Below are positions 5,478 to 63,702 of a stretch of 64,000 bases of DNA, piece by piece (position 1 is the first letter of the stretch; the number at the start of each line of letters is the position of its first letter). Under the pieces are notes generated by a model. The model was not told where the DNA came from and searched no databases. It worked only from the letters and a program-made list of their open reading frames with translations. Source of the DNA: Dehalococcoidia bacterium. GTDB lineage: Bacteria > Chloroflexota > Dehalococcoidia > Tepidiformales > Tepidiformaceae. Both the position numbers and the translations under genes were made by a program. The DNA lies in assembly GCA_020850615.1 (NCBI GenBank), contig JADZEI010000066.1, positions 1,943 to 65,942 of the forward strand, given 5' to 3'.

Positions 5478-6410
5478 ATGGCGATCCTGCTCGTAGACGA
5501 GCTCACCAAGCGATACCGCAACGGCACCCTCGCGAACGACAACCTCTCCCTCGCGGTCGAACCGGGGGAGGTCTATGCCCTGCTCGGCCCGAACGGCGCC
5601 GGCAAGACCACGCTCGTCCGCCAGGTCCTCGGGCTGCTCAAGCCCACGAGCGGCCGCATCCACGTCGACGGCGTCGATGTCGTGGCCGACCCGAAGTACG
5701 CGCGGCGGGCGATCGGCTTCCTCCCCCAGGCACAGTTCGCGATGGAAGCGATCCAGGTCGGCGAGCTGGTCTACGGCATCGCCCGGCTGCGCGGGCTCGA
5801 TGCCGGCGAGGCCCGCCGCCGCACCGACGAGCTCCTCGACGAGCTCGACCTCGGGCCGTTCCGCGGCACGCAGCTCCGCTCCGCCTCCGGCGGCATCCGG
5901 CGGCTCGCGGCCTTCGCTACCGCCGTCGTGGGCCACGCCCGCTTCCTTGTGCTCGACGAGCCGACGAACGACGTCGACCCCGTGCGGCGGCAGCTGCTCT
6001 GGAGCCGGCTCGCCGCCTTTCGCCGCGAAGGCACCACCGTCCTCCTCGTGACCCACAACCTCGCCGAGGCCGAGCGCGTGATCGACCGGTTCGCCATCAT
6101 CGACCATGGCCGCATCCTCCGCGAAGGTACTCCCGCGGCCCTCCGCTCGCTCGTGACGGACCGGCTCCGGCTCGAAGTCACGACCACGGAGGCGTTCGGC
6201 GGCGCCCACCCCGCGCTCCAGCCCGACCCCGCGACGCCCGGCGCCTACCTGTTCGACCACAGCGACCTTGCGGCGGTGAGCGCCTGGGTGCAGGCCGCCC
6301 ACGAATCCGGCGAGCTGGTCGACTTCCGCATCGGCCCGCCGACGCTCGACGACATCTACACGGTGACGGTGGGGGACCCGCGCCGGGAAGCGGTGGGGGC
6401 CGCGAAATGA
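5478..6410 (+). CDS. ABC transporter ATP-binding protein (ABC-2/DrrA-like exporter)
   Basis: In-frame ATG 5478 within ORF 4905..6410. Walker A GPNGAGKTT, signature SASGGIRR, Walker B FLVLDEPT. Stop overlaps the permease start (ATGA). Confidence 0.9.
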   Translation: MAILLVDELTKRYRNGTLANDNLSLAVEPGEVYALLGPNGAGKTTLVRQVLGLLKPTSGRIHVDGVDVVADPKYARRAIGFLPQAQFAMEAIQVGELVYGIARLRGLDAGEARRRTDELLDELDLGPFRGTQLRSASGGIRRLAAFATAVVGHARFLVLDEPTNDVDPVRRQLLWSRLAAFRREGTTVLLVTHNLAEAERVIDRFAIIDHGRILREGTPAALRSLVTDRLRLEVTTTEAFGGAHPALQPDPATPGAYLFDHSDLAAVSAWVQAAHESGELVDFRIGPPTLDDIYTVTVGDPRREAVGAAK

Positions 6411-7144
6411 GCTTCTTCGCGCAGTACGGCATCCTCACCCGCATGCGTTTCCAGATGATGCGCAACGAGATGATGATCTTCGGAATCATCCAGGTCGCGC
6501 TCTCCGTGGGCCTCGTCCTCGGCCTCGGCTACATCGTCCCCGACGTCTCCGACACGACCGCGCTCTTCCTGACGACCGGCACGGCGACGCAGGCGATCGT
6601 GACGATCGGCCTCGTCGCGACCCCGCAGATCCTGGCGATGGAGAAGCAGGAGGGGCGGCTGGAGTACATGCTCACGCTCCCGATCAGCCGCGAGGCGTAC
6701 ATCCTCGCGCAGATCACCTACGTCGCGGCGATGGCGCTGCCGGGCGTGGTCATCGCCGTCGCGCTGGGGGCGTGGCACTACGGTTTCGGGCTCGACGTCT
6801 CGCCGCTGGTGCTGCTGGTCATCCCGCTCGCCATCCTCTCGCTCGCGGGCGTGGGCATCGCGATGGCGACGCTTTCGCCGCACCAGCAGCTCACGAACGC
6901 GCTGACGCAGCTCATCATCTTCTACGTACTCTTCTTCGCGCCGGTGATTGCCCCGAAGGAGCAGCTCCCGGAGGTGCTGCAGCGCGTCTCCGTGGTCATG
7001 CCGCCGACCTACGCCGCCGACGCCATCCGCGCGAGCCTGACCGGCCTGCCGGGCACGCACCTCGCCCGCTCCCTCATCGTCATGGCCGGCTTCGCCGCCG
7101 CCTCCACCGCCCTCGCCTCCCTCAGCCTCCGCCGGCGGGGGTAG
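6407..7144 (+). CDS. ABC-2 type transporter permease
   Basis: 245-aa ORF with six hydrophobic segments, translationally coupled to the ATPase. Confidence 0.8.
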   Translation: MSFFAQYGILTRMRFQMMRNEMMIFGIIQVALSVGLVLGLGYIVPDVSDTTALFLTTGTATQAIVTIGLVATPQILAMEKQEGRLEYMLTLPISREAYILAQITYVAAMALPGVVIAVALGAWHYGFGLDVSPLVLLVIPLAILSLAGVGIAMATLSPHQQLTNALTQLIIFYVLFFAPVIAPKEQLPEVLQRVSVVMPPTYAADAIRASLTGLPGTHLARSLIVMAGFAAASTALASLSLRRRG

Positions 7145-8357
7145 GGGCGTAGAGGCGTGAAGGAGGGGCGTAAAGGCGTAAAGGCGTAGAGTGGGCGTCC
7201 GCCGCGAATCCGAGCCGCGCGCGTGAGCGAGCGGAGGCGGACCCCCAGCACCGGCGCCCCGCGGTAGCCCGCGACCCCTTCTCCCCGCGGCCCGTACACC
7301 CAACGCGACGCGCCCACCGCGGAGCGCGCGACACGGCACCGACCGGGTGTAGCCGGCGCCCCTTGTGGGCGCGAGCGTCTAAGCCAACCGATGTGGCATC
7401 GGAGGCCGCCCCGCCCCGGCGACCCTGTCCCGGTATCGCCACGCCACCCCTCCGCGGCCGGGCTGTCGCTACGCTCCCGCCCTCGCTCTGGGCTACCGCG
7501 GTGTATCCGTTGGGCTGACGCCAGCGCCCACGAGGGGCGCGGCTACGGCTTCGCCCCGCGGCGCCGCCGGGGCCGAGGAATCGTCGCCAGGCTTCATCGA
7601 TCCACGCATCGCGGGTAGCTGCGAGATCCTGTACGGCTCGCGATACCGCGGGTCATCCTCGGGAAGCGGGCCCCTGTTGATAACGCGACCCATCGTCTGC
7701 CTCGTTCCAGTCTTCGAGCCGAAGGTCTGCGTCGGCCCGGATACTGTCCACTATATCGTCCCCGGTAACGCCCTCGGACGCCGTTCAACCACCGCTGCAA
7801 GTTCGCCCTCACGCCCGTCCCTCCGTCGCCCGGGGTAGGGGCGAATCCGAGCCGCGTGCGTGAGCGAGCGGAGGCGCACCCCCCAGCACCGGCGCCCCGC
7901 GGTAGCCCGCGACCCCTTCTCCCCCCGGCCCGTACACCCCCGCGACGCGCCCACCGCGGAGCGCGCGACACGGCACCGACCGGGTATAGCCCGCGACCCC
8001 TTCTCCCCCCGGCCCGTACACCCCCGCGACGCGCCCACCGCGGAGCGCGCGACACGGCACCGACCGGGTGTAGCCGGCGCCCCTTGTGGGCGCGAGCGTC
8101 TAAGCCAACGGATGTGGCATCGAAGATCGCCCCACCCCGGCGACCCTGCACCGCGAAAGCGCCCGGGGGCCACACCCAGCCATGCGGCCGGCCCGTCGCT
8201 ACGCTCCCGCCCTCGCGTTGGGCTACCGCTGTGCATGACACGGACAATCCCGCGGAGCAATGCTCCGCGGCTACGCCTGCGGCGCCGCGACGCCCGCCCC
8301 TTCGCGCCTTTACTTTGGAGTAGGGTGCTTCGCCCGGCCGCGCGCTACATTCGGCCT
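7144..8357. repeat. 1.2-kb non-coding repeat mosaic
   Basis: Octamer array 7144-7200. Composite unit 7205-7393 repeated at 7843-8114. A2 forward 7349-7393 and 8070-8114. A1 reverse 7503-7546. 84-bp tandem units 7903-7986 / 7987-8070. B reverse 8233-8286. A less GC-rich unique segment lies at 7560-7800. Confidence 0.85.
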
Positions 8358-33010: not shown

Positions 33011-33121
33011 GGCTGAGTCTCCGTTGTGGGAATGGGCCCGCGGGGAAAACGCGGGCGCGGCGGGGGGAATGCTACGCGGCCGGGGGGCGGTTGTCGCCCC
33101 GCCCCCTCCCCGCGTCCCCCC

Positions 33122-33267
33122 GTTCCCAGTTCCCAGTTCCAGGAGGCGAGCGCACGGTGTGGCGCCCAGGCCGCTGCCGTCTCGCTCGCAGCTGGCCGCC
33201 CTGGCTCACCCGACACCCGGGGCGGGCGATTGTGGTTGCGACGCCTCTGGGAACTGGGAACTGGGAA
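33122..33267. repeat. inverted heptamer arms (GTTCCCA x3 / TGGGAAC x3) around a ~105-nt core
   Basis: GTTCCCAGTTCCCAGTTCCAG at 33122-33142 and CTGGGAACTGGGAACTGGGAA at 33247-33267. Confidence 0.8.
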
Positions 33268-33344
33268 CCCGCGCGCACGGCGCGCGCAGCGCGCTCCGCG
33301 CTACAATGGGCGTCCAGGCTCCGCGCGCCGGGGCCGCCCCCTCT

Positions 33345-34601
33345 ATGTACAACACGCACACCCTGTCCAACGGCCTCCGCATCGTCACCGCCGAACTCCC
33401 GCACACGCGCTCCGCCACTGTCAGCGTCTACGTTGGCGCCGGCAGCCGCTACGAACGCGACGAAGAGGCCGGTCTCTCCCACTTCCTCGAACACATGCTC
33501 TTCAAGGGCGCCTCCCGCCGGCCCACCGCCCGCGAGATCGCCGAGGCGATCGAGGGCGTCGGCGGGTCGCACAACGCCGCCACCGACCGCGAGGTGACGG
33601 TCTACTACGCGAAGGTGCCGGACAGCGCCGCCTACGAGACGATCGACATCCTCGCCGACATGGTGCGGGACCCGGTGATGGACGCGGCCGAGCTCGAGAA
33701 GGAGCGCTACGTCATCCTCGAAGAGCTCGCCGGCATCGAAGACAACCCCGCCGAGATGGCGGGCATCCTCATCGACGAGACGATCTGGCCCACCCAGCCG
33801 CTCGGCCGCAACGTCGGCGGCACGCCCGAAAGCGTGAAGGCGCTGCCGCTGAGCGCGGTGAACCGCTACCTCAAGGCGCAGTACGTGCCCGAGAACATGG
33901 TCCTCGTGGTCGCGGGGAACATCGAGACGGCGCGTGTGGTCGATACGGCCGCGCGCTACCTCGGCGACATGCCGGCGGCGCGGCCGGGCGCCTGGTACCC
34001 GGTCGAAGAGCGGCCCGGTGCGGCCCGCATCGCCGTCCGCGAAAAGGCGACCGAGCAGGCCCACCTCTGCATCGCCTACCCGTCGGTCGCGCTGGACCAC
34101 CCGGACCGGTACGCGGTGGACCTGCTGAGCACGGTGCTCGGCGAGGGCATGTCGAGCCGGCTCTTCCTGGAGCTGCGCGAAGAGCGCGCCCTCGTGTACG
34201 ACGTGCACACCTACCCGACCGAGTACCGCGATGCGGGCGTCTTCACCGTCTACGCCGGCTGCGACCCCGAGAACACGCGCGTCACCGGCGAGCTCATCTT
34301 CGAAGAGACGGCGAAGCTGCTGGAGCACCTGCCGGAGGAGGAGCTCGCCAAGGGGAAGATGATGGCCCGCGGCCGCATCCAGCTGCGGATGGAGGACACC
34401 CGCTCCGTGGCCGGCTGGATCGGCTCGCAGCAGCTCCTCCTCGACGAGATCCTGACGGTCGACGAGGCGGTCGCGCGGATCGAAGCGGTGACGATGGACG
34501 ACGTCCTCCGCGTCGGCCGCGAGCTGCTGCGCCCGCAGCGCGCCTCGATCGCCGCGGTCGGCCCGTTCGAAGACGACGCGCTCTTCGCGGGGCTGCTGTA
34601 G
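33345..34601 (+). CDS. M16-family (pitrilysin/insulinase-like) zinc peptidase
   Basis: ATG 33345 (alternative 33306) in ORF 32910..34601. TLSNGLRIVT, and the inverted zinc motif HFLEH followed by MLFKG. Confidence 0.9.
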   Translation: MYNTHTLSNGLRIVTAELPHTRSATVSVYVGAGSRYERDEEAGLSHFLEHMLFKGASRRPTAREIAEAIEGVGGSHNAATDREVTVYYAKVPDSAAYETIDILADMVRDPVMDAAELEKERYVILEELAGIEDNPAEMAGILIDETIWPTQPLGRNVGGTPESVKALPLSAVNRYLKAQYVPENMVLVVAGNIETARVVDTAARYLGDMPAARPGAWYPVEERPGAARIAVREKATEQAHLCIAYPSVALDHPDRYAVDLLSTVLGEGMSSRLFLELREERALVYDVHTYPTEYRDAGVFTVYAGCDPENTRVTGELIFEETAKLLEHLPEEELAKGKMMARGRIQLRMEDTRSVAGWIGSQQLLLDEILTVDEAVARIEAVTMDDVLRVGRELLRPQRASIAAVGPFEDDALFAGLL

Positions 34602-53457: not shown

Positions 53458-53756
53458 AAGGCGTAAAGGGGTGGAGGCGTAAAGGCGCCCACCCCCCGCC
53501 GCCGTAGCCCCCGGATTTTCGATTTTCGATTTTCGATTTTCGCCAGCACGGACGGGGTCGGCTGCGATGGCGCCGGAGACGGACGCGCACGCCGTCGAGC
53601 ATGGAGACGAGCGGTGGTTCGCATCAGCTCCGGGGCAGGCGACCATGTCGCTCTCACCGGAAATCGAAAATCGCAAATCAGGAGGGGCGGGGCTCGGCGG
53701 GGAGGGGCCCCACTCTACGCCTCTACGCCTTTACGCCTCACGCCTTCCCCGACACC
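53458..53756. repeat. ~300-bp nested imperfect palindrome (octamer arms outside, heptamer arms inside)
   Basis: Octamers 53458-53487. Heptamers GATTTTC x4-5 at 53513-53543. ~115-nt core. Inverted heptamers GAAAATC type at 53659-53680. Inverted octamers 53710-53756. Confidence 0.8.
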
Positions 53757-53802
53757 TGCCGACGTTTTCACACTTCGAGACGGAAAACGGATTGATCGGA
53801 TC

Positions 53803-53816
53803 AGAACGTATGTTCT
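53803..53816. promoter_or_regulatory. LexA-type SOS box (AGAAC-GTAT-GTTCT)
   Basis: Perfect 14-nt palindrome matching the Gram-positive/Cheo-box core GAAC-N4-GTTC (CGAACRNRYGTTYC), 49 nt upstream of ATG 53865, in a locally AT-richer stretch. It is the only such site I found in the window. Confidence 0.6.
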
Positions 53817-53864
53817 ACTCTGCGGATCCCCCACCACGGTGGAGGTCCGTCGAGAGGTGAATCA

Positions 53865-54185
53865 ATGTCCGCAATCCTTGAAGCACCCGTCCGGCGGCCG
53901 CGCATCGACGCTTTGCCGGAATACACCGAATACCAGGACGGCGGCTGCGACCTCTACCCGTCGTGCCTGACCTGCCCCCTGCCCCGCTGCCGCTACGACG
54001 ACCCGGGCGGCGCCGCGGCCATGCTCCGCACCGGGCGCGACGCCAGCATCGTCCGCCTCGCATCGCGCGATGGTTCGACTGTGGACGAGCTCGCGGCGAT
54101 GTTCGGCGTCTCCCGCCGGACCGTCTTCCGCGTCCTCCGCGCGGCCCGCGCGAACGGCGACTTCCTCCTCCGGCAGTCGGCGTGA
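53865..54185 (+). CDS. small 4-Cys + helix-turn-helix protein (putative redox/metal-sensing regulator)
   Basis: 106-aa ORF with a Cys cluster CDLYPSCLTCPLPRC (C-x6-C-x2-C-x4-C) followed by STVDELAAMFGVSRRTVFRVLR (HTH). Confidence 0.7.
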   Translation: MSAILEAPVRRPRIDALPEYTEYQDGGCDLYPSCLTCPLPRCRYDDPGGAAAMLRTGRDASIVRLASRDGSTVDELAAMFGVSRRTVFRVLRAARANGDFLLRQSA

Positions 54186-54257
54186 GTAAAGGCCCGTGGT
54201 TCTAACGAAGAACCTTCACCCCTGCGCGCCGCCCGGCCGGGTGCCGAACATCCGATC

Positions 54258-55352
54258 GTGAGAAATGATCTGCCGGGCTGGCGCGACGAGATGCTGTACG
54301 ACGAGTACGGCCGCTCGAAGTCGCGGGTTTCGACCGCGAAGATGCGCGGTCTCCTCGTCGCGGCGGTGGTCGGCATCGCCGGGATCGCGCTTGTTGGCTT
54401 CGCGATCTTCTCCGGCGGCGGCGGCGAATCCACCCCCGCGGACAGCTCGGGAGACGGCGCCGGCACGGCCCCGGACGGCAGCTCCGGCGGCCCCGCAAAC
54501 AGCGGCGGTCCCGTCAACAGCAGCAGCGCCACCGGCTCGGCGACCAGCCCGCGCACCGCGACCGCAGTCCCCACCACCGGCGGGGACGACAACCCTGAAT
54601 CGTACGAAGGCGCGGTCGATGTGCCGCCGACGGGCCTCGAATACGGGCTCGATCGCGAGCTCTTCCGCCTGCCGCTCAAGGAGTGGACCGCGCTCGGCGA
54701 CCGCTTCGGCGCGCGCCGCAACGGCGACCGCGTGCACGGCGGCCTCGACTTCCTCCTCACGAAGCACCGCTCGTCCGACATCCTCGCGGCCTGCAGCGGC
54801 ACGGTCACCGGCGGCGGCCACTCGGACCAGCTCGCCACCTTCCTCGTCGTCGATTGCGGCGGCGGCTGGACCACGGTCTACGCGTTCATCGGCGATGTGA
54901 AGGTGCAGCAGCGCGACCAGGTGGAGGCCGGCGTCACCGTCATCGCGAAGTCGGACCCGGCCGAGTCGCCCTTCGGCGAACACCTTCACTTCGAGATCCG
55001 CTGGCGCACGGTGCCGGTGGACCCGGAGCTGCTGCTCGACCTGACCGGCCAGCTCTACCTGCCGACGCCCACGCCAACGCCGGAACCATCGCCATCGCCA
55101 GAACCGTCGCCGACTCCATCGGCCACGCCGCGCGGCGGGTCGGAGGTGGGCACGGACACGCCGGGCAGCGATGAGCCAGGCACGGGCACGCCGGACAACC
55201 CGGGCACGCCCGTCCCGACGGCGCCGCCGCCCACGCCGACGAACCCGCCCACGGCGACGCCGACCCCGACGAACACCCCGGTCCCCACGCCGACGCCGAC
55301 CAGGACGCCGAAGCCGCCCACCCCCACGCCCACCCCGCGCCCGCGCCTGTAG
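54258..55352 (+). CDS. membrane-anchored M23-family peptidoglycan metalloendopeptidase with Pro/Thr-rich tail
   Basis: GTG 54258 (alternative ATG 54291). TM LLVAAVVGIAGIALVGFAIF. HGGLDF (HxxxD) and GEHLHFEI (HxH) M23 motifs. C-terminal PTPTPEPSPSP… region. Confidence 0.85.
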   Translation: MRNDLPGWRDEMLYDEYGRSKSRVSTAKMRGLLVAAVVGIAGIALVGFAIFSGGGGESTPADSSGDGAGTAPDGSSGGPANSGGPVNSSSATGSATSPRTATAVPTTGGDDNPESYEGAVDVPPTGLEYGLDRELFRLPLKEWTALGDRFGARRNGDRVHGGLDFLLTKHRSSDILAACSGTVTGGGHSDQLATFLVVDCGGGWTTVYAFIGDVKVQQRDQVEAGVTVIAKSDPAESPFGEHLHFEIRWRTVPVDPELLLDLTGQLYLPTPTPTPEPSPSPEPSPTPSATPRGGSEVGTDTPGSDEPGTGTPDNPGTPVPTAPPPTPTNPPTATPTPTNTPVPTPTPTRTPKPPTPTPTPRPRL

Positions 55353-55412: not shown

Positions 55413-55721
55413 ATGCGCCGGTACCAGTCGGTCCGCCGAATCGAAGCCGGGAGCGTCGCGCTCCCGGAGGAAGCTCTCGAAGCGCTCGGTGTTACCGACG
55501 GCGGCGAAGTGACGGTCGTCGTGGAAGACGGCGAGGTCCGCCTCTGCCACGCGTCGCCGGGCACCTACACCGACCCGGAAGACGGCTTCGTTTTCGGCCC
55601 CGGGCACGAGGAGCGGCTGCGCCAGGCCCTGGCCGACTACGAAAGCGGGCGGGTGGTCACGCTGACGAGCGACCGCCTGCGCCAGCTGCTCGGGGTAGCG
55701 GACGACAGCGAGGATGCCTGA
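55413..55721 (+). CDS. AbrB/SpoVT-fold antitoxin-like protein
   Basis: RRIEAGSVALPEEALEALGVTDGGEVTVVVEDGEVRL fits the swapped-hairpin AbrB pattern. Overlaps the downstream toxin gene by 8 nt. Confidence 0.65.
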   Translation: MRRYQSVRRIEAGSVALPEEALEALGVTDGGEVTVVVEDGEVRLCHASPGTYTDPEDGFVFGPGHEERLRQALADYESGRVVTLTSDRLRQLLGVADDSEDA

Positions 55722-55983
55722 TTATCCGTCGCTCATCCTGACCGACACCTTCCTTCGGAGTCTGCTCTCCCTTCGCCTCACCGCGGCCGAACAGCGACAG
55801 GTGCTCAAGTCGTTGGCGCTGCTCGAAGCGGACGAACGGCACCCCTCGCTACGCGTGCATCTGCTCCAGGGGACGATGGCAGGCACCTGGTCTGCTTCGG
55901 CTTCGGACGTGCTCCGGATCAGGTTCACGCGGGATGGGAATCGGAAAGTGCTGCTGGACGTTTCCCGGCACTACGACACCTGA
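55714..55983 (+). CDS. RelE/ParE-superfamily toxin-like protein
   Basis: 89 aa. …LLEADERHPSLRVHLLQGTMAGTWSASASDVLRIRFTRDGNRKVLLDVSRH fits the RelE/ParE pattern (L.G…WS.r…RI.f…i.LL.v..H). Confidence 0.6.
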   Translation: MPDYPSLILTDTFLRSLLSLRLTAAEQRQVLKSLALLEADERHPSLRVHLLQGTMAGTWSASASDVLRIRFTRDGNRKVLLDVSRHYDT

Positions 55984-55990
55984 GCCGCCC

Positions 55991-56782
55991 TCATGCCGGC
56001 TTCACCGCACGCGTGGCGAAGTAGCCGGGCATGTATTTTGCCGTCGCTTCGAGGCTGTGGTGCGGTGTTTCGTCGAAGGCAGTGATGACGAACCCGGCGG
56101 CGAGCTGCCCGCCGATCTGTTCGCCCAGGGTATGGCTGTACTCCACCGGCGCCGCGGGGCCCCACCGCCGCTGCACCTCCTCCAACCCGAGCGCCTCGAG
56201 GTCCGAATACGGCAGCGGGTGGCGGACGATGAGCTCGCCCCGGGCGTCCATCGCCTCGGCGTCGAAGATGTAGAGGTCCGGGTTCATGAAGCCGCAGAGC
56301 AGCGCCCCGCCCGGCCGCAACACCCGGTAGCACTCCCGCCAGACGGGCGCGAGCTCGGGGCAGAACAGGTTCGAGACCGGGTTGAAGACGAGGTCGAAGC
56401 TCGCATCGGCGAAGGCCGAGAGGTCGCGCATGTCGCCAAGCACGGTGCGCAGGACGAGCCCCTCGCGTTCGGCGACCTCCGTGTCGCGGGCGAGCTGCCG
56501 CGGCGAGTTATCGAAGACGGTCACGTTCGCACCGGCCGCGGCGAGCACCGGGCCCTGCTGCCCGCCGCCGGAGGCCAGCGCGAGCACATCGGCGCCGCGC
56601 AGCTCCGCCGGGAACCAGTCGCGCGGCACGGGCTGGTAGCCGATGAGGACGACCGACCAGTCGCCCTCCCGCGCGCGGGCGATGACACCCGGCCCGACGG
56701 GCTGCGTCCACTCGTTGCCGCCCTCGACCTGGGCATCCCAGGCGGCGCGGTTGTGGGCGACGGGATCGACGGGGCTGGTCAT
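55991..56782 (-). CDS. class I SAM-dependent methyltransferase
   Basis: VLALASGGGQQGPVLAAAGANVTVFDNS (motif I/II) and FDLVFNPVS. Confidence 0.8.
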   Translation of the reverse strand: MTSPVDPVAHNRAAWDAQVEGGNEWTQPVGPGVIARAREGDWSVVLIGYQPVPRDWFPAELRGADVLALASGGGQQGPVLAAAGANVTVFDNSPRQLARDTEVAEREGLVLRTVLGDMRDLSAFADASFDLVFNPVSNLFCPELAPVWRECYRVLRPGGALLCGFMNPDLYIFDAEAMDARGELIVRHPLPYSDLEALGLEEVQRRWGPAAPVEYSHTLGEQIGGQLAAGFVITAFDETPHHSLEATAKYMPGYFATRAVKPA

Positions 56783-56831
56783 GACGGCTCATCGTTGCTC
56801 GCGGCGAGCTGCACGTCGAGTGCTGACAGGA

Positions 56832-57446
56832 TCAGGGCTTCCATGCGCTGACATCGATCTGCTCCTCCAGCGGGAGCGTAGCGGGACTTGTCTTCCAGAA
56901 ACGGTCGGCGGCTTCGAGCGCGGCATAGTACGGCTTTTTGTCCTGGGCGATGATCTCCGGGATGGCGCGCTCGCCGGGAAGCAGAAACCCGAGTTTGGCG
57001 CAGAACACGAGGTACGAGACCGCCCGCGATGTCCGGCCGTTGCCGTTCGCAAACGGGTGAATCCAGTTGAGCCGCCACATGACGTATGCCGACAGGTGCT
57101 CCGGCGTCGCCACACCCCAGCGGTCGTTGACGTAGTCGCACATCTGCTGGAGGTAGCGCTCCACATCAATCGACGCAGGCGGCACATGGCTGGACCCGCC
57201 GATTGAGACGGCCTCACGCCGTAACTGGCCCGCATCGGGCTCCAGGCCCTGCACGGCAAGGCGCTGCAGTTCGCAGACGATCGCGGGAGTGAGATTCAGC
57301 CGGCCCGCAGAAATGGCCTCCTCGATCAGCTCGACCAGGCGATCGAACTGGAGGAGGCCGTTGTCCGCTTCGAGCGCATCGATCTCCGCATCGGACAGGG
57401 CGGGCAAGCCCTCGGGGTCGCTGCCGGTTCTAGTGGGACGCGGCAT
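56832..57446 (-). CDS. Fic/DOC-family protein (Fido domain)
   Basis: Fic motif HPFANGNGRTSR (HxFx[D/E]GNGRxxR with N at the D/E position). Its start overlaps the upstream small gene by 17 nt. Confidence 0.85.
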   Translation of the reverse strand: MPRPTRTGSDPEGLPALSDAEIDALEADNGLLQFDRLVELIEEAISAGRLNLTPAIVCELQRLAVQGLEPDAGQLRREAVSIGGSSHVPPASIDVERYLQQMCDYVNDRWGVATPEHLSAYVMWRLNWIHPFANGNGRTSRAVSYLVFCAKLGFLLPGERAIPEIIAQDKKPYYAALEAADRFWKTSPATLPLEEQIDVSAWKP

Positions 57447-57624
57447 CCCTGGTGGCGTGCGAGCTCAGGCGTTCGGCGGCCTCATCGATCGTGGCCTTCG
57501 TGATGCGCTCGTTTTCGATGTGCGTGTTGCCGTAGGCGAAGCTTCTCCGCTGCCGTTCCTTCGCGTCCTGGCTCATGCGCACGTGCCGGGCGGCGTCTAT
57601 TCGCGCTTGCAAGTCTTGATCCAC
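57430..57624 (-). CDS. VbhA-like Fic inhibitor/antitoxin (variant inhibitory motif)
   Basis: GTG 57624, 8 nt after GAGGAGG (alternatives GTG 57660, ATG 57576). ERQRRSFAYGNTHIENERIT aligns with the VbhA RR…ASQRLEG region. The motif is N-x3-E-N rather than [S/T]-x3-E-[G/N]. Confidence 0.5.
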   Translation of the reverse strand: MDQDLQARIDAARHVRMSQDAKERQRRSFAYGNTHIENERITKATIDEAAERLSSHATRDAASH

Positions 57625-57863
57625 GCTCGTTGCCTCCTCGTACCGGTTCGCCCTGTCCACCAACCTTGCGCCAACGGGCAGGGTTTGACAACCGATGACC
57701 TGGCGCACCCGATGCCCCCCACGCCTCCTGACACGGCGCTGGCAGGAGCGTAGGTTCACCCCGCGGGGCTCCTGACAGTATGGTGTCACCACGGGGATGG
57801 GAACATGGCCGCGCCGCGGCAAGAGGTGTCGCGGACATTCCCCCAACAGCGAGGACGACCACC

Positions 57864-58265
57864 ATGAACATCTCCGCGTTCACCCTCAACCTGACCAGCG
57901 ACCAGCCGGGGGCGATGATCGCCTTCTACCGTGACGTCGTGGGCCTCCCGATGCTCGCCGACATGGGCGAGGGCGCGTTCAACGCCGGCCCCGCCGTGCT
58001 CATCATCGACGGCCATTCCGAGACGCACGGCCGGGCGAAGGAGCCGCAGCGCGCGCTCATCGACCTCTTCGTCGACGACATTGATGCCGCCGAAGAGGAG
58101 CTCCGCGGCCGCGGCGTCACGTTCCTTCGCAGCAAGGGCCGCGAGTTCTGGGGCGGCATCATCTCCACCTTCGAAGACCCGGACGGGAACTACCTGCAGC
58201 TCATCCAGTACGACCCGGCGGCAGCGATGCCCGAACCAGAATTCGAGGCGGCCGCGACCGCTTGA
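57864..58265 (+). CDS. VOC-family (glyoxalase fold) protein
   Basis: ATG 57864 in ORF 57780..58265. FYRDVVGLPM… and ISTFEDPDGNYLQLIQ. Confidence 0.8.
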   Translation: MNISAFTLNLTSDQPGAMIAFYRDVVGLPMLADMGEGAFNAGPAVLIIDGHSETHGRAKEPQRALIDLFVDDIDAAEEELRGRGVTFLRSKGREFWGGIISTFEDPDGNYLQLIQYDPAAAMPEPEFEAAATA

Positions 58266-58416
58266 CCCGCATGGAGGCCACCATGCCCGCATCCGAACCC
58301 GTCTGGGCGGTCCGCCTGCCACCCGCCGAACCGTGCGAGCGCGCGGCGCCGGAGCCCGCGCCCGCGCCCCCACCGGGCCGGCCGGCGCCGCCGCCCTGGC
58401 CCCCGCGGGACCGGCG

Positions 58417-59103
58417 GTGAGGCGCGCGGACCGCCTCTTCCAGGTCATCCAGCTCCTGCGGCGAAAGCACGTCGTCACGGCGGCGTACATCGCCCGGGAG
58501 CCGGAGGTCTCCGAGCGCACCGTCTACCGCGACATTCGCGACCTCGTGCTTTCGGGCGTGCCCATCGACGGCGAAGCGGGCGTCGGCTACATGCTCCGGC
58601 GCGGGTTCGACCTGCCACCGCTGATGTTTACCGCACCCGAAATCGAAGCCATGGTCCTCGGCGCGCGCGTCGTCCAGAGCTGGGGCGACGCCCAGCTCGC
58701 GAAAGCGGCGACGGACGCGCTCGCCCGCATCGAAGCCGCCCTGCCGGACAAGCTCAAGCAGAAGATGCAGGCGACGCCGCTCTACGCGCCCGGGTTCCAC
58801 GTCCGCCCCGAGATGATGCAGCGCCTTTCGGACCTGCGCGGCGCGATCGACGGCCGCAACCGCACCTGGATGGCGTACACCGACGCCGACGGCAGCGCCA
58901 CCGAGCGCACGGTCCGCCCGCTGGGGCTGTTCTTCTGGGGGCGCACCTGGTCGCTGGCGGCCTGGTGCGAACTGCGCACAGACTTCCGGGACTTCCGCCT
59001 GGACCGCATCCGCGAGCTGCGCGTGCTCGAAGAGCGCTACGAACTCGAATCCGGCCAATCCCTCGACGACTTCTTCCGCCGCATGGACGAAGACCACGAG
59101 TAG
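58417..59103 (+). CDS. YafY-family transcriptional regulator (DeoR-type HTH + WYL domain)
   Basis: GTG 58417 in ORF 57931..59103. RADRLFQVIQLLRRKHVVTAAYIAREPEVSERTVYRDIRDL (HTH) and ERTVRPLGLFFWGRTWSLAAWCELRTDFRDFRLDRI (WYL). Confidence 0.85.
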   Translation: MRRADRLFQVIQLLRRKHVVTAAYIAREPEVSERTVYRDIRDLVLSGVPIDGEAGVGYMLRRGFDLPPLMFTAPEIEAMVLGARVVQSWGDAQLAKAATDALARIEAALPDKLKQKMQATPLYAPGFHVRPEMMQRLSDLRGAIDGRNRTWMAYTDADGSATERTVRPLGLFFWGRTWSLAAWCELRTDFRDFRLDRIRELRVLEERYELESGQSLDDFFRRMDEDHE

Positions 59104-61783: not shown

Positions 61784-61867
61784 GTTTGCCGCCACGCTAC
61801 CTTCTGATAACCGCGCGGTAACTTTTTCGCGGACTGATGCGTTTCTCCTGTTTGGGAACCCGCGGTA

Positions 61868-61896
61868 TTGACCGAACCGGGCTCCTCGACGATAAC
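61868..61896 (+). promoter_or_regulatory. candidate sigma-70-type promoter TTGACC-N17-GATAAC
   Basis: Lies in the locally AT-richer 250-nt gap upstream of the surface-protein gene (ATG 62032). 5/6 match at -35, 4/6 at -10, 17-nt spacer. Confidence 0.35.
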
Positions 61897-62031
61897 CAAA
61901 CTCGCACGCGAGCGTCCCGCCCGGGAAGTCGAGAGCCCGGCGGAACCAGGTGTTCGTGGTGCGTCCCGGCAGCGGCGCCCGGCGGGGTGCGCCCAACGGG
62001 TCCCTTATGGAGGGGCGTGTTGGCGGCACCT

Positions 62032-63702
62032 ATGGCGAATCTACCCTTCCGGCTCGCGCGTGGAGCCGGCATTTTGTTCCTTGCGGGCGCGTTGCTCGCC
62101 GGGGGCATCCCCCGGGCGGCATCCGTGCCGCGCGTCCAGGCAGCTGGTTGCCCCGTGGTCAGCGGCTTCGTCTACCACGACGTGAACAACAACGGCCTGC
62201 GCGATGAGGGCGAACCCCCGATCGCGGGCAGCTCGATCGAGCTCCGCACGCCCGCGGGCGCCGTGGTCGGCCGCGCGACGACGGACGCGAACGGCTACTA
62301 CCAGTTCCTCACGGACGAATCCGCGAACGCGCCGCTCCAGACGCAGACGCACTCCGTCACGTTCCCGACCGAGACGACGGACTGGACGGCGACGAAGGAG
62401 CTCCCGCAGTTCGACCCCGGCCTGGGCACGCTCAAGTCGCTCACGATCACGAACAGCGGCAGCATCACCAGCGCGATCAAGGCCGAAAGCCTCGACAGCG
62501 TCGCCTCCACCGTCTCCGCGACGGTGAGCGGCACGCTGACCGTGACCGCGCCCGGCGACCGCGACATCGCGACGGTCCCGACGGTGAACGCGGGTTCGTT
62601 CGAAGCCGCCGCCTACGACGGCGTGGCCGACTTCGAAGGCGACAGCGGGCACGACTTCGGCTCGCACACGGCCTCGGACTCGAACACCGTGACCCTGACG
62701 GACCCTGCCTCGCTCGCGCCCTACGTGGGCACCGGCGCGGCGACGTTCACGGCGAGCGTGATCGCGAGCTCTCGCACCAGCGGCAGCGGCAACGTGCTCA
62801 ACCAGATCAACACGACGGCGGGCGCCCAGCTCATGGTCGTCTACCAGTACCAGCCGCTCGTCTGCCTCACGCCCGGGCGCTACAACATCGTCCAGACGGT
62901 GCAGCCGCCGACCTACACCGACGGCCGCGAGACCGCGGGCAACGTCTCGCCGATCCCCGGCAGCGACCGCAGCGACACCATCCCGGTGGACCTTTCGACG
63001 GGCGACAAGCCGAACAACAACTTCGGCGAGCTGCGCGCCAGCCTCTCGGGCTACGTCTACGTCGACGATGACAACGACGGCAACCGCGACCAGGGCGAGG
63101 CGCCCATCCCGGGCGTTTCTATCCGCCTGACCGGCACGGATTCGAGCGGCGCCACGATCGACAAGACGGCGACGACGGACGGCAGCGGCTTCTACGCGTT
63201 CCGCAGCCTCCTCGCCGGCGACTACGTCATCGACGAGACGCAGCCGGCGGCCTACATCGACGGCAAGGACACGATCGGCTCGCAGGGCGGCAAGACGTCG
63301 AACGATCGGCACTACGACATCGACCTGCCCGCGGGCGTCGACGGCGTGAACAACAACTTCGGCGAGCGCTATGCCCCCACGCCGACGCCGACCGGCACCA
63401 GCACGCCCCCGAGCGGGACGCCGGGCACGGGCACGGCGACGGGAACGCCCCCGGGCGGCGGCACCGGCACCCCTCCGGGTGGCGGCACCGGCACCCCGGG
63501 CGGCACGACCAACCCGAACACGGGGGGCAACACACCCGGCGGCACGGTCGCCGGCGCGCGCACGCCGGGCGTGCCAGGCGCGGGTTCCGGCCTCTTCGAG
63601 ACGGCGAAGAGCCCGAGCGTGATCGTGGTCGGGCTCGTCATCTTCGCGGCATCCGGGTGGCTGGCGTTCCTGGCCCTGAACCGGAAGCGGCCTGAGGCGT
63701 AG
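62032..63702 (+). CDS. cell-surface protein with two SdrD B-like (Cna-B type) domains and C-terminal membrane anchor
   Basis: ATG 62032 in ORF 61837..63702. Signal peptide. SGFVYHDVNNNGLRDEGEPPIAGSSIEL…DANGYYQF and SGYVYVDDDNDGNRDQGEAPIPGVSIRL…DGSGFYAF (SdrD B-like). Pro/Gly/Thr linker and a TM + RKRPEA tail. Confidence 0.8.
   Translation: MANLPFRLARGAGILFLAGALLAGGIPRAASVPRVQAAGCPVVSGFVYHDVNNNGLRDEGEPPIAGSSIELRTPAGAVVGRATTDANGYYQFLTDESANAPLQTQTHSVTFPTETTDWTATKELPQFDPGLGTLKSLTITNSGSITSAIKAESLDSVASTVSATVSGTLTVTAPGDRDIATVPTVNAGSFEAAAYDGVADFEGDSGHDFGSHTASDSNTVTLTDPASLAPYVGTGAATFTASVIASSRTSGSGNVLNQINTTAGAQLMVVYQYQPLVCLTPGRYNIVQTVQPPTYTDGRETAGNVSPIPGSDRSDTIPVDLSTGDKPNNNFGELRASLSGYVYVDDDNDGNRDQGEAPIPGVSIRLTGTDSSGATIDKTATTDGSGFYAFRSLLAGDYVIDETQPAAYIDGKDTIGSQGGKTSNDRHYDIDLPAGVDGVNNNFGERYAPTPTPTGTSTPPSGTPGTGTATGTPPGGGTGTPPGGGTGTPGGTTNPNTGGNTPGGTVAGARTPGVPGAGSGLFETAKSPSVIVVGLVIFAASGWLAFLALNRKRPEA

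Follow-up and report, generated by a model that had tools for sequence, protein, structure and literature searches.

We analyzed a 64,000-nucleotide (nt) stretch of contig JADZEI010000066.1 (assembly GCA_020850615.1) from a Dehalococcoidia bacterium of the family Tepidiformaceae, phylum Chloroflexota. This stretch, hereafter referred to as the window, has a G+C content of 70.8%. The region of interest, 53803-55352, comprises a palindrome of the LexA type, a small gene for a protein with four cysteines and a helix-turn-helix (HTH), which we designate HTH4C, and a gene for a membrane-anchored peptidase of family M23. The following features make up the upstream part of the locus:

53792-53797, + strand: −35-like hexamer TTGATC, read from the sequence, with its aligned position conserved in orthologous promoters
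53803-53816, no strand assigned: LexA-type (Cheo-type) operator AGAACGTATGTTCT, a perfect 14-nt palindrome with the core GAAC-N4-GTTC
53816-53821, + strand: −10-like hexamer TACTCT, read from the sequence, its first base shared with the box
53851-53858, + strand: Shine-Dalgarno sequence GAGAGGTG, 6 nt before the ATG at 53865, with a GGAGG-like block at the same place in orthologues
53865-54185, + strand: HTH4C gene, encoding a 106-residue protein with an HTH_23 match (E 9e-8); G+C content at third codon positions (GC3) 0.89

The original prediction, made from the sequence alone, described a perfect GAAC-N4-GTTC palindrome 49 nt upstream of the ATG at 53865 that overlaps a possible TTGATC-N18-TACTCT promoter, and took it for a LexA-type operator. 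The palindrome can indeed be read directly at 53803-53816, at the distance described and inside the 18-nt spacer of the hexamer pair. It thus overlaps the core of the predicted promoter, in which the −35 element, the box, and the −10 element form conserved islands of the intergenic region. The TTGATC/TACTCT pair went undetected in a simple consensus scan for promoters, and the promoter call rests on conservation across orthologues. Within the window, GAAC-N4-GTTC occurs 3 times, compared to 0.70 occurrences expected from shuffles, with a count of at least 3 being reached in 3 of 100 shuffled sequences. Both other sites are coding, 1 at the start of a ROK kinase gene (25487) and 1 within the large open reading frame (ORF) 61837-63702 (62586), which leaves AGAACGTATGTTCT as the sole intergenic match. 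With a weight matrix built from orthologous operator sites, the AGAACGTATGTTCT site reaches 25.8 bits, compared to 12.8 bits for the second-ranking site in the window. Furthermore, an independent assembly from activated sludge (run X5) includes a single contig across 53710-54353, and the junction of box, HTH4C, and M23 gene is therefore no assembly artefact. The lone difference within the box in this contig is a T>G exchange at 53809, in the N4 spacer, which represents a strain variant.

A search for HTH4C in species-representative genomes yielded 19 loci, nearly all of which are labelled Tepidiformaceae, Dehalococcoidia, or Chloroflexi (retrieved loci are denoted by L numbers throughout). Among the 16 closest loci (68-77% protein identity), the box is perfect in 13, where (T/C)AGAAC-N4-GTTCTA lies 38-72 nt ahead of the match start, and carries 1 mismatch in the remaining 3. 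Five further loci, reached via metagenome proteins (L177, L180-L184), have a perfect box among unrelated neighboring genes. The box therefore precedes the HTH4C orthologue in 21 of 21 close loci (18 perfect, 3 with 1 mismatch), and its retention next to unrelated genes shows that the conserved unit consists of promoter, box, and HTH4C. In an alignment of 17 promoters, mean column identity is 48%, with diverged flanks around invariant box arms and an equally invariant TA directly after them. A (T/G)TGA(C/T) block 5-6 nt 5' of the box is nearly invariant as well, the −35 position reading TTGAC, GTGAC, or TTGAT, and the −10 position conforms to TAnnnT in all orthologues (TATTCT, TACTCT, TATGGT, TAATCT). 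The suggested overlap with a promoter is thus borne out by conservation of all 3 blocks across these 17 promoters. A chance match without regulatory role would fit the 3 of 100 shuffles that reach 3 sites and the silence of the consensus promoter scan. However, conservation at the same position in all 21 close orthologous loci, with flanks that diverge, already refutes this explanation, whose probability we regard as practically nil.

The same arrangement was found far beyond HTH4C. Scanning a genome collection with the pattern TGAC-N4-6-TAGAAC-N4-GTTCTA-NNNT returned at least 120 loci, mostly from Chloroflexota, and the genes behind these sites include at least 7 Y-family polymerases, at least 2 RecA proteins, and at least 1 SRAP protein. 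A second scan, targeted at recA, identified AGAAC-N4-GTTCT in the exact TTGAC...TAnnnT frame, spaced as at HTH4C, in front of recA from five Dehalococcoidia (including a metagenome-assembled genome (MAG) of Dehalococcoides mccartyi), five other Chloroflexi, and two Thermomicrobiales. HTH4C homologues were detected in 6 of the 120 loci of the promoter scan and in none of the loci with Y-family polymerase, SRAP, or recA (L113) genes; this search covered the promoter-scan loci (within 8 kb), with the later recA loci (L154-L176) standing outside it. The design common to the phylum is TTGAC, N5-6, TAGAAC-N4-GTTCTA, nnnT, and its occurrence before recA, Y-family polymerase, and SRAP genes in promoter-scan loci devoid of HTH4C marks it as the SOS-type operator of the phylum rather than a private site of HTH4C. 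Furthermore, in 10 loci the gene 3' of HTH4C is ruvB (Pfam RuvB_N, E 5e-77), and in 9 of these, ruvB has a box of its own, the strictly conserved CTCGAACATCCGTTCCC, with TAGACT as the −10 element behind it, whatever sequence lies further 5'. No SOS genes were found in the 64-kb window itself.

The LexA of Dehalococcoides ethenogenes reportedly binds GAAC-N4-GTTC, as described in 2002 by Fernandez de Henestrosa and colleagues (J Bacteriol). The motif is likewise established in Bacillus subtilis (Firmicutes) and Mycobacterium tuberculosis (Actinobacteria) (PMC3323433). Given conservation in all close loci and the same design in front of recA, Y-family polymerase, and SRAP genes, the assignment of the box to the LexA type has stood up, and these comparisons make it very likely that the box functions as an SOS-type operator of HTH4C. 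LexA itself is quite likely to be the protein that would bind it. Alternatively, the palindrome could be an autoregulatory operator of HTH4C, or HTH4C could read GAAC-N4-GTTC in this clade in place of LexA. This would be in line with the DNA-binding HTH of HTH4C, with the lack of lexA among the fetched loci, and with the observation that nearly every box seen in Tepidiformaceae adjoins HTH4C or the adjacent ruvB or lies in a phage-like module encoding an HTH4C homologue, L109 being the single exception. However, an identical box in an identical frame precedes Y-family polymerase, SRAP, and recA (L113) genes without HTH4C within 8 kb, and the frame recurs before recA in the recA-targeted loci, which the HTH4C search did not include. 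Moreover, the exception L109, itself from Tepidiformaceae, has the box in front of an unrelated 230-residue protein gene, and the motif coincides with the LexA site defined by experiment in Dehalococcoides, B. subtilis, and M. tuberculosis. HTH4C as the reader of the box is therefore quite improbable, and we retain LexA as the predicted repressor.

The HTH4C protein contains Cys28, Cys34, Cys37, and Cys42 in the arrangement C-x5-C-x2-C-x4-C and a C-terminal, sigma-region-4-like HTH_23 domain. Across 22 homologues, 25 alignment columns are invariant, including the 4 cysteines and the block DALPE...GC-x5-C-x2-C-x4-CRYDDPGG. The family is large and comprises at least 554 clusters when grouped at 90% identity and 1,777 when grouped at 50% (E<=1e-10; mostly 95-190 residues, whole-length matches), and no Pfam, NCBIfam, or PHROG family extends past its HTH. 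An AlphaFold model of HTH4C reached a predicted local distance difference test (pLDDT) score of 68 overall and is confident only for residues 50-105, which form a three-helix HTH. Foldseek searches against PDB and BFVD gave no match at E<=0.001 and only generic HTHs of the sigma-region-4, DeoR, KorA, and Mor-like kind at E >0.02. A match to a phage family, PHROG 836 (E 3e-5), is limited to the HTH part. Through this part (PHROG 836, Sigma70_r4, HTH_23, Foldseek), HTH4C resembles Mor/C late activators and stand-alone sigma-region-4 proteins. However, all of these matches are weak and none extends beyond the HTH, and those proteins lack an equivalent of the invariant Cys4 module (DALPE...CRYDDPGG). 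As to a Mor/C activator or a terminase small subunit, sequence and fold matches cover the HTH but not the whole protein, and the position of the gene next to the large-terminase gene (TerL) in phage-like modules is no more than suggestive. A WhiB-like iron-sulfur factor was considered as well and rejected, as the cysteine spacing C-x5-C-x2-C-x4-C differs from C-x(14-27)-C-x2-C-x5-C and Whib is not among the Pfam matches.

These modules became apparent from distant homologues of HTH4C (40-60% identity), which always lie directly 3' of a TerL gene and, in six loci, also precede a portal gene (PHROG 64, E 6e-30). The order c19 (small protein), c12 (small membrane protein), TerL, HTH4C, portal is found in L017, L018, L019, L030 (a viral contig), L043, and L073. 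L099 has c12, TerL, and HTH4C with no match to c19 or portal, and L063 shows no more than HTH4C behind a TerL-like gene. In six cases, a perfect TAGAAC-N4-GTTCTA, set in the promoter frame described above, is located at or near the module head: at the head in L017, L018, and L043, between c19 and c12 in L073, ahead of the first genes in L099, and immediately 5' of the TerL-like gene in L063. A distant HTH4C homologue in L122 is likewise preceded immediately by the box. Judging from these positions, the packaging and structural genes of the phage-like modules appear to be under direct SOS control. HTH4C itself is, by the same evidence, of putative phage origin and a predicted stand-alone SOS target with variable neighbors. 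The chromosomal HTH4C genes of Tepidiformaceae have no phage genes around them and are syntenic across many species, and we therefore regard them as domesticated; the protein is most likely a DNA-binding factor that was domesticated and is induced by damage. It could act as a second-tier regulator or as a site-recognition protein or partner of a terminase-like enzyme.

Downstream of HTH4C, the locus continues with the following features:

54198-54214, + strand: inverted repeat GGTTCT-N5-AGAACC in the spacer, without a T-tract and probably no terminator
54245-54257, no strand assigned: ruvB-type box relic CGAACATCCGATC (GAAC-N4-GATC, 1 arm mutated), matching 12 of 13 bases of CGAACATCCGTTC
54258-55352, + strand: gene for a membrane-anchored M23 (LytM-type) peptidase of 364 residues; Peptidase_M23 (PF01551), E 6.7e-15, residues 159-256

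The original prediction placed a single-membrane-span M23 peptidase 72 nt behind the small gene. This is what lies there: the M23 gene starts with the GTG at 54258, 72 nt 3' of HTH4C, and its product has a single hydrophobic segment (residues 32-51), the Peptidase_M23 domain, and a 94-residue tail consisting of 63% proline and threonine. The zinc ligands of peptidase family M23 are present in the motifs HGGLD (H160-x3-D164) and HLH (H242-x-H244). A consensus scan found no terminator-like or promoter-like site in the spacer between HTH4C and the M23 gene, and the folding energy of the spacer is no better than that of shuffled sequences (z -0.17 and z -0.53), so that a terminator or structured RNA was rejected. 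Transcription of the M23 gene is therefore most simply explained by read-through from the SOS promoter, and whether the peptidase would in this way be co-induced with HTH4C we consider evenly balanced.

The gene order in related genomes suggests how the peptidase gene came to lie behind HTH4C. In the closest relatives (L001-L016), the commonest layout is htpX (M48), HTH4C, ruvB, and an M16 peptidase gene, and the order htpX-HTH4C-ruvB is taken as ancestral because it is the commonest among these loci. In other relatives, HTH4C is followed by CorA, a GmrSD/Excalibur nuclease, or convergent unrelated genes. The window lacks ruvB over its entire 64 kb, and its orthologue of the M16 gene is found 20 kb away (33345-34598), behind a repeat-flanked palindromic element. 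Directly before the M23 start, the relic CGAACATCCGATC resembles CGAACATCCGTTC, which is the operator preceding ruvB in 9 relatives. A second occurrence of this junction was identified in L177, the closest relative (HTH4C 81% identical), which has a perfect box, HTH4C, a 126-nt spacer, and an M23 orthologue. There, the relic CGAACTTCCGATC abuts the M23 start too, and both genomes share CGAAC(A/T)TCCGATC next to the GTG. We read this sequence as the probable leftover of a ruvB box at a rearrangement junction. An M23 N-terminus built on ruvB codons was rejected, since beyond the 13-mer CGAACATCCG(A/T)TC local alignment to the ruvB promoter and 5' coding region is no better than with shuffles.

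The M23 gene is not found next to HTH4C in any of the 19 species-level relatives or in 3 further near relatives. No close orthologue exists in species-representative genomes, in which the best hit reaches 39% identity over the domain only and no box is present at the corresponding loci. Among 5.8 billion proteins, whole-protein relatives form just 2 other clusters (approximately 56% identity, 357 residues), and L177 represents one of these lineages. These numbers bear on the proposal that HTH4C and the M23 peptidase constitute a dedicated SOS module for the cell wall or for division arrest, in which an M23 enzyme would be the counterpart of YneA or ChiZ and have a small regulator of its own in front. 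Such a module would agree with the arrangement of both genes on the same strand, 72 nt apart and with neither terminator nor promoter between them, with the membrane anchor and intact catalytic motifs of the peptidase, and with the preservation of gene pair and junction in a second lineage (L177) despite divergence of M23 to 55% identity. However, the rarity of M23, both beside HTH4C and among known proteins, and the retention of the HTH4C box whatever gene follows are at odds with it, and the SOS division inhibitors known so far are small peptides of the LysM or transmembrane kind rather than catalytic M23 enzymes. Linkage conserved across the clade, as would be expected for an SOS division inhibitor, was not found for M23. 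A dedicated module is consequently unlikely, and a role of the M23 peptidase as division inhibitor improbable. The suggestion of an SOS-induced cell-wall module is thus retained only insofar as an SOS-type operator is present and the M23 gene follows 72 nt behind HTH4C; M23 as a conserved partner (0 of 19) is not. The idea that the small protein is the peptidase's own regulator had to be abandoned, given that HTH4C keeps its box irrespective of the following gene, has variable neighbors, and is apparently of phage ancestry.

A further possibility is that HTH4C and M23 are the remnant of a prophage regulation and lysis cassette, in which the peptidase would be an SOS-switched, membrane-tethered, endolysin-like enzyme releasing phage-like particles. 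HTH4C homologues are fixed parts of packaging modules headed by the SOS box, N-terminally anchored M23 peptidases can act as lysins, and the surrounding 6 kb are rich in accessory genes (AbrB/MazE-like, Fic, WYL-type regulator). However, there is no terminase, portal, or capsid gene near the pair in the window (a set of proteins without the M23 protein was scanned against PHROGs), and the proline/threonine-rich tail together with approximately 55% divergence at kept synteny resembles a resident envelope protein. We therefore consider a lysis cassette very improbable.

In the explanation that best accounts for these data, and which is probably correct, an SOS-type operator controls the HTH4C promoter, and the M23 gene is a recent, lineage-specific passenger. 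A repressor dimer would occupy the box, that is, the spacer and the first −10 base of a sigma-70-type promoter, and block RNA polymerase. Upon DNA damage, the repressor would cleave itself, stimulated by RecA, and thereby release the promoter. The conserved gene product made from it would be HTH4C, a protein of approximately 100 residues with a putative four-cysteine metal site and an HTH. In the lineage of the window, ruvB would have been replaced by the membrane-anchored M23 peptidase gene, with the one-mismatch relic of the ruvB box remaining at the junction, and M23 would be read from the SOS promoter as a passenger of this lineage. A more far-reaching scenario, in which HTH4C is a former partner of the large terminase in SOS-box-headed Dehalococcoidia modules that has become a metal-dependent SOS effector, and in which M23 was captured here in place of ruvB to yield a damage-inducible operon for cell-wall remodelling, lysis, or division arrest, is speculative and unlikely.

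Several observations weigh against the combination of an SOS-type operator with a passenger M23 gene. As to the repressor, no lexA was detected by tblastn in the window or any fetched locus (queries were the Escherichia coli and B. subtilis LexA), and no recA locus carries the label Tepidiformaceae. As to transcription, the TTGATC/TACTCT pair falls below the threshold of the simple consensus scan, and public transcript data comprise only two weak "RNA" runs with short, uninformative contigs; the sole "RNA" contig over the site begins 5' of the −35 element and is probably DNA. The Cys region of HTH4C is modeled with low confidence, and the function of the protein is read from context alone. On the side of M23, the start codon is not preceded by a Shine-Dalgarno sequence, the relic at 54245-54257 scores 2.0 bits with the site matrix and is probably a weak or dead operator, M23 is missing beside HTH4C in the relatives, and the linkage of the two genes is known only from this genome and the metagenomic lineage L177.

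Compared to known systems, the operator is closest to the LexA (DinR) Cheo-box of B. subtilis, M. tuberculosis, and D. ethenogenes, with which it shares GAAC-N4-GTTC placed over the core promoter as well as its presence at genes for RecA, Y-family polymerase, and Holliday-junction helicase. However, the box described here is the extended form (T/C)AGAAC-N4-GTTCTA, whose final TA also forms the beginning of the −10 element, its binding by LexA is a prediction, and its target gene is new. The SOS-type box over the ruvB promoter of Tepidiformaceae parallels the SOS control of ruvAB in E. coli and of ruvC-ruvA-ruvB in M. tuberculosis, whereas ruvB of Tepidiformaceae is not preceded by ruvA and has HTH4C as its upstream gene; in the window, only the box relic remains. 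Like YneA (Bacillus), ChiZ/Rv2719c (Mycobacterium), SosA, and DivS, the M23 protein spans the membrane once, carries a domain directed at the cell wall, and is encoded behind an SOS-type promoter. In contrast to these, it is a catalytic M23 enzyme of 364 residues, whose gene comes second after that of an unrelated regulator-like protein and is linked to it in two lineages only. LexA-controlled prophage switches (coliphage 186 tum, CTXphi, Bacillus phage GIL01) likewise place phage functions under the host SOS operator, as seen in the phage-like modules. However, the box heads packaging genes (terminase, portal) in the latter rather than an antirepressor or replication gene, and the chromosomal HTH4C occurs without phage genes in its surroundings.

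To our knowledge, the SOS response of Chloroflexota is almost unstudied; we know of one paper on Dehalococcoides from 2002 and found nothing further in the literature searched. The locus and the accompanying scans therefore define an SOS promoter/operator design that extends across this phylum. They also join a large, unnamed Cys4-HTH family (1,777 clusters), with HTH4C as a putative new target gene, to the predicted SOS regulon, and tie this family to packaging modules that appear to stand directly under the SOS operator. The M23 part, by contrast, is a lineage-specific addition of narrow distribution, from which no generalization should be drawn.

Several additional features of the locus should be noted. 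Nested palindromic elements composed of short tandem repeats and resembling miniature inverted-repeat transposable elements (MITEs) are located at 53458-53756 and 33095-33270. The former (GATTTTC/GAAAATC heptamers) lies immediately 5' of the HTH4C promoter, the latter (GTTCCCA/TGGGAAC repeats) immediately 5' of the displaced M16 peptidase gene, and both mark breakpoints of the htpX-HTH4C-ruvB-M16 synteny of the relatives. The region 3' of the M23 gene, 55413-59103, is rich in accessory genes and includes a methyltransferase-like ORF and a glyoxalase-like ORF in addition to the following:

55413-55983: AbrB/MazE-like antitoxin gene overlapping an 89-residue ORF
56832-57446: Fic/'mobile mystery protein B' gene
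57931-59103: ORF for a WYL-like HTH regulator

In L177, a pyrimidine-dimer glycosylase gene (Pyr_excise; 7536-8102, − strand) is convergent to the M23 orthologue and represents another DNA-damage gene at that locus. In L109 (Tepidiformaceae chromosome OZ244727.1), the operator and promoter before the 230-residue protein gene were found at 6148-6886; the protein has no NCBIfam match, and its gene is a candidate for a further SOS gene of Tepidiformaceae.

The promoter scan revealed further recurrent gene types. Glyoxalase/bleomycin-resistance-like (VOC) genes are located behind the same operator and promoter in at least 7 Chloroflexota loci (including L038, L042, L092, L097, L144, and L150). In Anaerolineae, a membrane protein of approximately 240-280 residues without Pfam match recurs directly behind the SOS-type promoter (L034, L037, L041, L046, L047, L049, L053, and more than 25 others). 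It contains the motif ...RGAAWGMMIIGALLAFEVFNFSTT..., and a single member that was scanned alone (L037) had no NCBIfam match. This protein is a candidate for an SOS-induced membrane effector or division inhibitor of the class. In L138, from a genome with 31% G+C, the same promoter type (TGAC...TAGAACATATGTTCTA) precedes a gene of the Tubulin/FtsZ family (1264-2419). Furthermore, at least 14 loci of the scan contain TetR-family genes from Proteobacteria, which have an operator of their own, TAGAACGATCGTTCTA, that is unrelated to the SOS box. This palindrome lies on the genes' own promoters in Enterobacterales and Xanthomonadales (L060, L070, L084, L091, L098, L133, and others) and, owing to its resemblance to the Cheo box, may give rise to false positives in scans for SOS boxes. 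Finally, recA is preceded by AAGAACGATCGTTCTGT in several betaproteobacterial MAGs, including Gallionellaceae (L154, L161, L162, L165, L167, L169, and L173). Betaproteobacteria reportedly use CTGT-N8-ACAG, and the presence of AAGAACGATCGTTCTGT at recA is thus unexpected.

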